Source of the DNA: a virus
Taxonomy: Duplodnaviria > Caudoviricetes
Reading direction: 5' to 3' (one strand)
IMG/VR virus record: IMGVR_UViG_3300021399_000098
DNA length: 64,000 bases
Part shown: positions 31,544-51,981 of the stretch, piece by piece
How the letters are laid out: every line of letters begins with the position of its first letter
Position numbering within the stretch: position 1 is the stretch's first letter
Notes under the pieces: generated by a model
Seen by the model: only the letters and a program-made list of their open reading frames with translations
Told to the model about the DNA's origin: nothing
Database searches by the model: none
Program-made: the position numbers and the translations under genes

Positions 31544-32104
31544 ATGCGTATGAAAAAGATTATTGGAATTTTGGTGTCATTAATGCTATGTTTTACATTG
31601 ACATCTTGTGTAACAACTGCCACAGCGCAGACTGATGATATGTATGATGACGTTGACATCAGCGTTGTTGTAACATATGGAACTCCTTTCTACAACACTG
31701 AGGGCTTGATTATCTATTATCTGTATCGTGATATGTTCTATTATCCTTATTTCTATCATAACAGATACTATTTGCACAGATACCATAGGCCATTGCCTCC
31801 AGAGAGGTTGAGAATGTATAGGCCAGTGCCTAGAGACTTTTACAGACCTAATCCTCCTAGAGGACACAAACCTCACGTAAGACCAAATAACCCTCCACAT
31901 AGAGGAGATATGAGGCCAAATAACCCACCTAGAAGGAATGGTGATGTCAGACCTTCACAACCAAATACAAGACCTAATATTAATAGAGGTATAGGCTCAA
32001 GACCAACAATGCCTAATATTAATAGAGGTGGTGGAAATGTAAGGCCAACAACTCCAAGGACAACAAATAGTCATGGCGGTTTTGGTGGGGCTAGAAGAAG
32101 ATAA
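31544..32104 (+). CDS. Lipoprotein with Tyr-rich core and Pro/Arg-rich disordered tail
   Basis: Signal peptide ending in LTSC lipobox; RPNNPP repeats. Confidence 0.7.
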   Translation: MRMKKIIGILVSLMLCFTLTSCVTTATAQTDDMYDDVDISVVVTYGTPFYNTEGLIIYYLYRDMFYYPYFYHNRYYLHRYHRPLPPERLRMYRPVPRDFYRPNPPRGHKPHVRPNNPPHRGDMRPNNPPRRNGDVRPSQPNTRPNINRGIGSRPTMPNINRGGGNVRPTTPRTTNSHGGFGGARRR

Positions 32105-39700: not shown

Positions 39701-40564
39701 ATGATTATTGGTTTTGCTGGAAGAATGCGAAGTGGTAAGACAGAGCTAGCTAAAATATGCGAACAAAATGACTATCAAAAACTATATTTCGCTTTGCCAT
39801 TGAAACAGCTTTGCGCAGATATTCTAGATATATCAATCGATGAACTTAATAGGGCAAAAAATGAGAACACCCCTATTCGACTTACTATTATGGATGATGT
39901 TTGTACCATCCTATCTGAAGAAACTGATATTCCAATAGAAACAACAAGAGAACTGTGTAATGGAAAATATATACATACAGTGAGGGATATGCTACAGTTT
40001 ATTGGTACTGACTACATAAGACGTTATAATATTGACTGGCACGTTAACAAGGTTAGACAGATGATAAATGAAGGTGTTAAATATGTAATTGATGATGTCA
40101 GATTCCCAAACGAAAAACAAATGATAGAAAGTCTAGGAGGTGATGTTTGGTTTATTAGCCGCCCAACATTGGATAACATTTCAAATCATGAATCAGAAAC
40201 ATCTATCACTTGGAACCAGTGTTGGAATAGAATTATAATAAATGATTCAACATTGGCGAACCTACAATTCAAATGGGAAATATTCATGGATGACTATAAA
40301 AAGTCGTTGGAAACAAGAGAAAAAGAATTTAATAGAATACTAGAAAATGGCTTGGACACAAACGAAATTTCACCGTTATCAATACTTGATGTGCTAATGC
40401 TGTCAAAAGCAATGTTTACATATACGCCAAAAGAGTTCTTCAAAGGAGATATTAAAAAAGCAACAATGAACGAGGATAAAACAGTATTTATCACTCACAA
40501 TGACGATTCAATAGAGATTATTGAAAACCCATTGAATATAGAAGATTTAAAAATGTTTTTATAA
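39701..40564 (+). CDS. Deoxynucleoside monophosphate kinase (T4 gp1-like)
   Basis: GRMRSGKT, FALPLK, LQFIGTD, DDVRFPNE, HESE. Confidence 0.85.
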   Translation: MIIGFAGRMRSGKTELAKICEQNDYQKLYFALPLKQLCADILDISIDELNRAKNENTPIRLTIMDDVCTILSEETDIPIETTRELCNGKYIHTVRDMLQFIGTDYIRRYNIDWHVNKVRQMINEGVKYVIDDVRFPNEKQMIESLGGDVWFISRPTLDNISNHESETSITWNQCWNRIIINDSTLANLQFKWEIFMDDYKKSLETREKEFNRILENGLDTNEISPLSILDVLMLSKAMFTYTPKEFFKGDIKKATMNEDKTVFITHNDDSIEIIENPLNIEDLKMFL

Positions 40565-40622
40565 AAAAATGCAACTTCTCATAAATGTTAAATGATAACG
40601 TAAATAAAATTAAAAAACAAAT

Positions 40623-41260
40623 ATGTCAAAAAAGGTAGACTTTAAATATGATAATGGGTCGGAGGTGTTTTTCACCTCCGACACCTAGGTACTCATTTTG
40701 GACATTCAAATATAATCCAATTTTGTGACCGACCATTCTCAAACGTAGAAGAAATGGACTACAACTTGATTAAAAATTGGAATGAAAAAGTTCCTACAGA
40801 TGGGTTGGTATTCCACCTTGGGGATTTCGGATGGGGAGGCTATCAAGAGTATAAGAAAATTAGAGACCAACTTAATGGAAAAATCATACTGATTAAAGGA
40901 AACCATGATTTCCGCAATGGCTGTCAGTCAGAAGCACAGTATAACGAATTGTTTGAATATACGACACAGCAATTGCTCATAGAAATCGAAGGTAGAAAAA
41001 TCTACCTTAATCATGTACCTTTTCTTTGTTATGGTGGAACATACCGTGACCCCAAAGGTTTGGTATATCAACTTTTCGGTCACGTACACTCTGGTCCTGG
41101 AAAAAAAGGAGAAGACCTAGTTAGATTAAAATATCTTTTCCCAACACAGTATGACGTTGGCGTTGATAACAATAACTATACACCAATATCATGGAAAGAA
41201 GTTGATGAAAAAATAGGAAAACAACTTTTAAAAAGCAAATTTAAAAATGGCAAGAATTAA
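40623..41260 (+). CDS. Calcineurin-like metallophosphoesterase, split by an 8-nt insert with an in-frame TAG (putative translational bypass)
   Basis: Frame A gives MSKK...FFTSDT-stop; frame B gives THFGHSNII..HLGDF..GNHD..NHVP..GHVH; joined they restore SDTHFGH. Confidence 0.8.
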
Positions 41261-41780
41261 TCATAATTATCTCACATACGAAAGGAATTACCATAAAATG
41301 ATTGGATATAAGGATTTGTATATGGAAGATGCTTATAAGCACTTTATACATTTTCTTAAGTATATCAAAGTCTACGGTTCTTTCCGTCTGCAAATGACGA
41401 AACTGTTTGGTTCTTTTGCTCAACTATATAAAATATATTTTGAAAAAAGAATATTACACTACCAAGATTTTTGTGATTACCAGTATAGAAATGGTGTACG
41501 CACAACCACTACACTATACCATTGGTATGAAGACCGTATACTACTGTTTCCATTCCTTTACGATTATGATGAAGATAATTATGATGATATACTAAGACGC
41601 GACTTAGACAGAAAAACAATAACCAATTGGTTTGCAGTTAAAGACCTTTGGCTAGAATATTGCAACGAAAATAAACTATACAATTCAACAATTATATTAA
41701 GGAAAACAGATTATGAAGATACTTGTGATACCAGACGTACATGGCAGGAAATTTTGGAAGAATGCGGTTTCATTGTATGA
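41247..41780 (+). CDS. Hypothetical protein
   Basis: Overlaps both neighbouring genes in the operon. Confidence 0.5.
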   Translation: MARINHNYLTYERNYHKMIGYKDLYMEDAYKHFIHFLKYIKVYGSFRLQMTKLFGSFAQLYKIYFEKRILHYQDFCDYQYRNGVRTTTTLYHWYEDRILLFPFLYDYDEDNYDDILRRDLDRKTITNWFAVKDLWLEYCNENKLYNSTIILRKTDYEDTCDTRRTWQEILEECGFIV

Positions 41781-42429
41781 AAACGATTGCAATAAAATCA
41801 TATTCCTAGGAGACTATCTAGACCCATACGAATGGGAAGGAATTACTAGGAAAGAAGCTATAAAAAACTTTGAGGAAATCATAGAATATAAACGCAATAA
41901 TAAAGATAAAGTAATATTGCTGTTGGGAAATCATGACATGTCCTATTGGTCAAAAGAATTCCATACACGCTCAAGATATGACTCAAGCAATGCATACCAC
42001 ATTTCAGATGACTTCAATAAAAATAGAAGCCTATTCCAATTGGCATACGAAGAGAAAATTGGGGATAAAAACTTCCTATTCACTCACGCTGGAGTCATGA
42101 ACTCATGGGTTAAAAGAAATGAAAAAGTGATAGGAACACCAACAGTCGAAAGCCTAAACCATTTGCTACAGATTCCAAGTGGAATTAAAACACTAACAGA
42201 TGTGTCAAACTATAGAACTTGGTTTGGTGATGAGACTGGCAGCATCGTGTGGTCAGACATGAGGGAAAAACAAGACAAACCAAAAGATACTGATGTAGAA
42301 GGATATGATTATCAAATATTCGGTCATACACAACAAGACGAAGACGCAGTAATTACAGATAAATGGGCTTGCCTAGATTGTAGAAAAGCATTCATATTGA
42401 CAGAAGACGGAAAATTACAAGAATGCTAA
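41713..42429 (+). CDS. Metallophosphoesterase
   Basis: DVHG, GDYLD, GNHD, THAG, GHT. Confidence 0.88.
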   Translation: MKILVIPDVHGRKFWKNAVSLYENDCNKIIFLGDYLDPYEWEGITRKEAIKNFEEIIEYKRNNKDKVILLLGNHDMSYWSKEFHTRSRYDSSNAYHISDDFNKNRSLFQLAYEEKIGDKNFLFTHAGVMNSWVKRNEKVIGTPTVESLNHLLQIPSGIKTLTDVSNYRTWFGDETGSIVWSDMREKQDKPKDTDVEGYDYQIFGHTQQDEDAVITDKWACLDCRKAFILTEDGKLQEC

Positions 42430-51909: not shown

Positions 51910-51981
51910 CGCGGTGGTGGTAGCAATGGTAGCTCGTCAGCCCCATAAGCTGAAGACGTGGTTCGAATCCAACGTCCGCAA
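51910..51981 (+). tRNA. Degenerate tRNA-Met(CAT), initiator-like
   Basis: CGCGG..CCGCA acceptor with C1:A72, GGTAGCTCG, TCAGC-CCCATAA-GCTGA anticodon arm, TTCGAAT T-loop; imperfect stems and no CCA. Confidence 0.65.

Follow-up and report, generated by a model that had tools for sequence, protein, structure and literature searches.

To our knowledge, programmed translational bypassing in bacteria and phages has essentially one well-studied natural example, that of T4 gene 60. Pairing of the exiting mRNA through a 5′ stem-loop has been suggested as the forward driver of this bypass (10.1101/2024.12.09.627546). It is part of the MobA element, which comprises an element-encoded N-terminal segment and for which tight genome pairs are known, one genome carrying the element and the other lacking it; the bypass gives protection against nicking, and it is retained by some phages after the endonuclease has been lost (10.1101/2022.08.31.505936). 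Shorter hops over stop codons have been obtained in E. coli with laboratory constructs, which are of low efficiency without stimulators (Weiss et al. 1987, reviewed in PMC5009743). Natural stop-hops have long been expected, and a 2016 review stated that no natural in-frame case was known (PMC5009743). The closest published short candidate is the terminase of Streptomyces phage Hau3, for which a bypass of 7–10 nt at a UUA codon has been put forward, with three genes known (PMC10732093). In the mitochondria of Magnusiomyces capitatus, many short inserts called 'byp', which translation skips, lie between matched or near-matched codons and behave as mobile DNA (PMC5009743).

We analysed a stretch of 64,000 nucleotides from a virus of the Caudoviricetes (IMG/VR record IMGVR_UViG_3300021399_000098, hereafter the window), in which a metallophosphoesterase gene is interrupted within a catalytic motif. 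The first-pass annotation of this DNA, made from the letters alone, had read the interruption as a ribosomal bypass, and our comparison of homologs, with its 17 modules and the covariation of their hairpins, supports that reading. It is likely that the enzyme is produced by a short programmed translational bypass, or 'stop-hop', carried on a small mobile module. Literature searches for this phosphoesterase site found no description of it.

The site resembles T4 gene 60 in the match between its take-off and landing codons, its stop codon directly after take-off and its stem-loop 5′ of take-off (PMC5462505), and in both cases the gap splits the metal-binding region of a phage enzyme. The likeness extends to the MobA element, with a link to free-standing homing endonucleases (seen here in the relatives L007, L013, L033 and L043), an element N-terminal segment distinct from the parental sequence, close genome pairs of which one member has the element and the other lacks it, and probable loss of the endonuclease. 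The two systems differ in the interrupted gene (a topoisomerase subunit in T4, a phosphoesterase here), in the codons used (Gly GGA against Thr or Leu), in the spacing of the 5′ hairpin (9 nt against 0 nt) and in the type of endonuclease (HNH against LAGLIDADG or GIY-YIG). The gap is 50 nt long in gene 60 but only 5–14 nt here, too short for an A-site or extended stem-loop. In contrast with the KKYK-type nascent-peptide signal of gene 60, none was seen here, where the nascent chain would be only about 20 residues long at take-off. The T4 cassette has no sequence homology to the modules described below.

The synthetic stop-hops have in common with our site the proposed re-pairing of the peptidyl-tRNA on a matching codon past the stop, and their +5 and +6 shifts are also those of several variants found here, but the present site is natural, conserved and equipped with a dedicated hairpin, and the form in the window is +8. 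The Hau3 candidate likewise has a short coding gap at a conserved junction of a phage gene, a slow A-site codon and a proposed 5′ stem-loop stimulator; there the trigger is a sense codon that is rare and linked to the tRNA supply of the host, whereas the present site has a stop codon as its proposed trigger, many variants and a link to endonucleases. The 'byp' elements differ in being mitochondrial, 27–55 nt long and largely context-independent, with an unused codon in the A site.

A catalytic motif interrupted behind a hairpin

The gene starts with a short open reading frame, ORF1, and continues past a stop codon in another frame (Table 1). The undecoded stretch would comprise 8 bases, that is, the 5-base coding gap and the landing codon. 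The downstream open frame (P0001) has 189 residues with the ACT codon included; joining the frames at the Thr codon gives 21 + 188 = 209 residues, in agreement with the joined protein proposed at first pass, whose positions for the ATG, ACC, TAG, GT, ACT and hairpin are all correct to the base. The ORF that can be annotated, from the ATG at 40754 (168 residues), is only the distal part of the resumed frame.

Table 1. Features of the interrupted locus and of the tRNA complement of the window
Feature	Position	Strand	Remarks
tRNA Arg-CCT	31851–31937	-	sole ARAGORN tRNA in the window
Deoxynucleotide monophosphate kinase gene	39701–40564	+	upstream neighbour; Pfam PF21448, E 2.9e-12
Spacer, kinase stop to ORF1	40565–40622	+	58 nt; 0–5 nt in uninterrupted alleles
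ORF1	40623–40685	+	21 codons, Met to Thr; last codons GAC ACC; encoded peptide ends ...SDT
Hairpin	40658–40682	+	perfect 10-bp G+C-rich stem, T5 loop; 3′ end is the Asp codon, at the base before take-off
Take-off codon ACC (Thr)	40683–40685	+	proposed P-site codon while the stop occupies the A site
Coding gap TAG + GT	40686–40690	+	TAG 40686–40688, GT 40689–40690; missing from the nearest relative, G001
Landing codon ACT (Thr)	40691–40693	+	proposed re-pairing with the same peptidyl-tRNA-Thr; would not be decoded
Resumed frame from CAT (His)	40694–41260	+	stop at 41258–41260
Second metallophosphoesterase, NinI-like	41713–42429	+	intact; PHROG 246; overlaps the end of a 177-residue unknown gene (41247–41780)
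tRNA-like gene (Rfam)	51911–51980	+	anticodon CAU; mismatched acceptor stem; 31 bits; not called by ARAGORN

The resumed frame matches Pfam PF12850/PF00149 (Metallophos_2, Metallophos) and carries the His of D-x-H, followed by the GD, GNHD, H and GHxH motifs of calcineurin-like metallophosphoesterases. Motif I is split, with its Asp in ORF1 and its His in the resumed frame, and the full set of motifs (D-x-H, GD, GNH(D/E), H, GHxH) is complete only when the frames are joined. For the intact homolog of G001, the PHROG match is 547 'phosphoesterase' (E 3e-48) and the best PDB match is 1xm7, with ORF1 aligning to 1xm7 residues 4–14. In the AlphaFold model of this homolog (pLDDT 92; best structural matches 1xm7, YfcE and a Pseudomonas nuclease MPE), residues 15–19 form a core strand that leads into D20-T21-H22, and the break therefore separates the Asp ligand of motif I from its His ligand. 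ORF1 is thus predicted from the model to encode a core β strand and the motif I Asp, and not a dispensable leader.

Synteny of the upstream kinase gene with the phosphoesterase gene extends to most relatives (~60 loci). Downstream, the second phosphoesterase could partly back up the interrupted enzyme. In one relative the NinI-like gene is itself split (L061:4138–4457) by a full-length match to the group I intron family RF00028 (43 bits, E 2e-9, below the gathering score of 50); L062, a close relative, has this gene intact.

Coding density in the window is high under genetic code table 11. A suppressor tRNA was sought in the window and none was found, the only tRNA genes being Arg-CCT and the CAU tRNA-like gene. 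An alternative genetic code was ruled out on these two grounds, and also because no genetic code can join frames that lie 8 bases apart. An assembly or sequencing artefact at the inverted repeat is effectively excluded and is the least probable of all the explanations that we considered: the identical 8-base insert is shared by at least five assemblies made independently from several metagenomes (L006/L044, L045, L047, L043), so that a one-off assembly error is excluded, and dozens of further assemblies, from different samples, carry related inserts. The first-pass annotation had drawn attention to the palindrome formed by this insert. It is real in the window but missing from most other variants, and we therefore regard it as incidental.

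The hairpin is a perfect 10-bp stem abutting the take-off codon, as described at first pass, and it dominates the local fold. Over the 33 nt preceding take-off, the folding energy is −18.3 kcal/mol in the window and −17.1 to −20.3 kcal/mol in 10 of 10 distinct interrupted alleles, against a median of −3.6 kcal/mol, and −14.2 kcal/mol at the strongest, for the same 33 nt of 65 distinct uninterrupted homologs. As this separation is complete (p = 4e-7, a value inflated by the relatedness of the sequences), the hairpin of the window is more than a chance structure. Its stem ends at the base directly before take-off in all variants. The covariation test suggested by the first-pass annotation was positive: over 11 distinct sequences, 100% of the cells are paired and 4 of the 10 pairs are changed on both sides, a score reached by 0 of 500 shuffles. 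The compensatory changes in the arms are mostly synonymous, as in Ser TCG/TCC swaps, and G·U pairs are tolerated in the stem, which fits a sense-strand RNA structure. The hairpin could, however, act at the level of DNA and not of RNA, for example by blocking an endonuclease.

When viral contigs were searched with a degenerate hairpin pattern, all 15 matches fell within the phosphoesterase gene, each with a gap, and other hairpin-plus-stop sites were sought across the window, with terminator-like hairpins as the only result. A Shine–Dalgarno role for the GGAGG of the 5′ arm was ruled out, as some variants replace GGAGG and keep the stem. Weaker hairpins are kept in two intact alleles, L040:2976–3000 and L067/L068 (−14.2 and −10.6 kcal/mol), which possibly arose by precise loss of the gap ('hit and run').

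Recurrence of the module and selection on the interrupted gene

Homologs were gathered by scans of viral and metagenome contigs, their proteins being 46–93% identical; phage GenBank records yielded two weak, unannotated matches only. In about 35 related loci we distinguished 17 modules (a tally that includes L033), each made up of the hairpin, a codon X, a stop, 0–8 further bases, a matching codon X′ and then His. The Thr–stop–spacer–Thr layout whose conservation the first-pass annotation had proposed as a check is thus found with stronger support than expected. Written as take-off, gap and landing, the 5-base form is ACC TA ACT, in which there are zero further bases and the stop overlaps the landing codon. 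Shifts of 6 bases are represented by ACC TAG ACT, ACT TGA ACT, CTG TAG CTG and CTG TAA CTG. The 8-base shifts comprise ACC TAG followed by GT, GC, TG or TA and then ACT or ACC, as well as ACG TAG TT ACG, ACT TAG GT ACA and two forms (L062, L065) that take off at ACG and land at ATG. Longer shifts are found in L131 (12 bases) and L026/L127 (14 bases).

All three stop codons (TAG, TAA and TGA) are used across the variants, always directly after take-off. The codon pairs seen are ACC/ACT, ACC/ACC, ACG/ACG, ACT/ACT and ACT/ACA, together with CTG/CTG in D-L-H subfamilies; the replacement of Thr/Thr by Leu CTG/CTG is found in two separate subfamilies of this kind (L033, L128). Take-off and landing codons match in 15 of the 17 forms, where a single tRNA can read both, and the pair in the remaining two, ACG to ATG, which is the sole second-position codon change among the variants, can still form through G·U. 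A hop-specific nascent-peptide motif shared by the ORF1 peptides of interrupted as compared with intact alleles was sought and none was seen; these peptides are alike except for the S-E/D/G-V residues that encode the stem.

The set of shifts bears on how the frames could be joined. Shifts of 5, 8 and 14 bases change the frame and those of 6 and 12 do not, and neither frameshifting nor readthrough can therefore explain the whole set; re-pairing of the P-site tRNA, as proposed from the sequences, can account for all five lengths. A conventional recoding event, namely a −1 (or +2) frameshift in the T-run or at the stop, or readthrough, might seem suggested by the T5 run in the hairpin loop and by the same net frame change required in the 5-, 8- and 14-base forms. 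Nevertheless, one mechanism cannot serve these and the in-frame forms as well, the catalytic Asp is replaced if the ribosome slips in the T-run, and D-x-H gains 2 or 4 residues if the in-frame forms are read through. An X XXY YYZ heptamer is also missing, as is a structure downstream, the hairpin lying upstream. Conventional frameshifting and readthrough are thus effectively excluded, the 6- and 12-base variants bearing out the dismissal of a −1 slip at first pass.

The ATG landing codon of L062 and L065 could alternatively reflect reinitiation there, and 70S ribosomes can slide spontaneously and reinitiate after stops (PMC11194080). Both points would suit a split enzyme, in which termination at the TAG and reinitiation a few bases on produce a 21-residue peptide and a 188-residue protein that may assemble. 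We hold this minor rival to be very improbable, as the other 15 forms have ACT, ACC, ACG, ACA or CTG before the His, none of them an efficient bacterial start, as the peptide must supply the core strand β1 and the metal-ligand Asp in trans, and as the hairpin and the matching codons are left without a role. Furthermore, the 21 codons that separate the landing codon from the first internal Met are conserved, and L109 has no internal Met within its first 45 codons, which argues against internal initiation.

The main rival to the stop-hop is a knock-out allele, in which the insert would be a selfish endonuclease-immunity scar in a dispensable gene and the downstream frame would be intact through recent insertion. 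In G001, the nearest relative of the window, the gene is uninterrupted, there is neither a hairpin nor a spacer after the kinase gene, and the flanks are 95–97% identical; taken alone, this comparison would suggest a pseudogene. A knock-out would also agree with the movement of the module between backbones, with the near-identical intact sisters of interrupted alleles and with the presence of a second, different phosphoesterase 450 bases downstream. It leaves unexplained, however, why the stop always directly follows take-off, why the landing codon matches even after the switch from Thr to Leu, and why the ATG and the frame of ORF1 are always kept.

Selection on the interrupted copies weighs further against a knock-out. 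All of them retain an ATG-started ORF1 in frame with take-off and the full downstream frame, invariant catalytic residues included, and a second lesion was found in 0 of ~35 copies, even though the modules are widely diverged (17 forms, 5 stem variants). The dN/dS values of interrupted sisters are 0.071 (L045–L047), 0.075 (L044–L047) and 0.086 (L061–L062), i.e. 0.07–0.09 within interrupted-only clusters, that of the window and L045 is 0.057, and intact comparisons give 0.035–0.055; as the module spreads horizontally, the low values of the gene bodies could partly predate each insertion. Of the two signs of a pseudogene named by the first-pass annotation, an uninterrupted relative does exist (G001), but relaxed selection was not seen. 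The dN/dS of 0.06–0.09 and the lack of a second lesion speak against pseudogene status, and we consider the knock-out allele unlikely.

A second interruption of ~1.1 kb is present in the phosphoesterase gene of L026 (positions 1890–2990) and L089, right after the GNH of GNHD. Within it lies a 253-residue ORF that has LAGLIDADG-like motifs, and the interruption resembles an intron or the insertion of an endonuclease; an Rfam search for an intron in these two loci gave no match. This copy has the 14-base gap too.

Mobility of the module and homing endonucleases

A quick maximum-likelihood tree (IQ-TREE) was built from 98 distinct downstream proteins; mapped onto it, the interrupted state requires 12 changes, and well-supported branches force at least 6 of them. 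The 71-nt module of the window, from the ATG to the landing codon, is 98.6% identical to that of L045, the gene bodies being 83% identical. With L007, L043 and L065, the identity of the modules is 95.8% each and that of the gene bodies 79, 69 and 70%, respectively. In the comparison with L065, it is at the landing codon that identity breaks off.

Homologous genes for LAGLIDADG-plus-HTH endonucleases are located between the kinase gene and ORF1 in L007, L013/14/53 and L033, ending at the start of ORF1, and in L043 a GIY-YIG endonuclease gene occupies this place and abuts ORF1. Three uninterrupted alleles (L008, L010, L071) also have an upstream endonuclease gene, ~140–150 nt from the start. Most interrupted loci, including that of the window, have no adjacent endonuclease gene. 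Judging from these arrangements, the module (ORF1, hairpin and gap) most likely entered the gene together with a free-standing homing endonuclease located between the kinase and phosphoesterase genes. The window has probably lost that endonuclease since, the 58-nt spacer being a probable remnant of its gene: the last ~30 nt of the spacer resemble the 3′ end of the LAGLIDADG endonuclease ORF of L007, a match that is suggestive only, owing to its AT-richness. By analogy with T4 MobA and gene 60, the gap probably destroys the target of that endonuclease. The tuning of enzyme output to RF1 or tRNA availability, which the first-pass annotation had envisaged, is unsupported; the data point to an insert that came with a homing-endonuclease cassette.

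Some of these loci have further peculiarities. The endonuclease ORF of L007 (2063–2998) lacks a stop of its own, runs in frame into ORF1 and ends at the TAG of the gap. The LAGLIDADG ORF upstream of the CTG TAA CTG gap of L033 (2013–2933) contains three in-frame TAG codons and no frameshift, next to normal genes; either this ORF is in decay or its expression depends on TAG suppression. The gap stop of this phage is TAA, not TAG. In G001, a relic of a window-type 3′ end (L003:2290–2400, 97% identical) follows the stop of its own divergent phosphoesterase gene, which implies that recombination replaced the 5′ part of the G001 gene.

The proposed hop and its implications

Termination at a stop codon in the A site is slow relative to the decoding of a sense codon. 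We infer that ORF1 is translated up to ACC and that the entry of TAG into the A site, followed by slow termination, would then give a pause. While ACC occupies the P site, positions −1 to −10, in the E site and the mRNA exit channel, would be taken up by the 3′ arm of the hairpin, and the loop and the 5′ arm would by then be at or beyond the mRNA exit. Zipping of the stem could pull the mRNA through the ribosome by up to ~10 nt, which would fit the 5–14-nt shifts observed. The peptidyl-tRNA-Thr would leave ACC and re-pair on the first matching codon, ACT, 8 bases downstream. Decoding would restart at CAT (His) and the product would be a single 209-residue enzyme with D-T-H intact, containing the tryptic junction peptide YDNGSEVFFTSDTHFGHSNIIQFCDR.

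Neither an A-site nor an extended stem-loop was found in the local fold, and the 5-base gap takes part in no structure. We tentatively suggest, while leaning somewhat towards a less simple arrangement, that a 25-nt hairpin, a codon, a stop and a matching codon may make up a self-sufficient, portable minimal bypass module, in which the refolding of the exiting mRNA alone would drive an efficient hop of 5–14 nt without a nascent-peptide signal or A-site structure.

If this reading of a minimal module is true, the phosphoesterase sites would be the first natural family of stop-hops, and a ready-made allelic series for the study of ribosome sliding, with at least 17 natural variants, among which the length of the gap, the stop codon, the pair of codons and the sequence of the stem vary. 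They would represent a far simpler bypass system, reduced to one hairpin, one stop and two matching codons. Gene callers truncate such genes, as exemplified by the 168-residue ORF in the window. The modules would also be a second, independent case of a homing-endonuclease cassette travelling with a bypass, which suggests that bypassing may be a general route by which selfish inserts can settle in conserved catalytic motifs without killing the gene.
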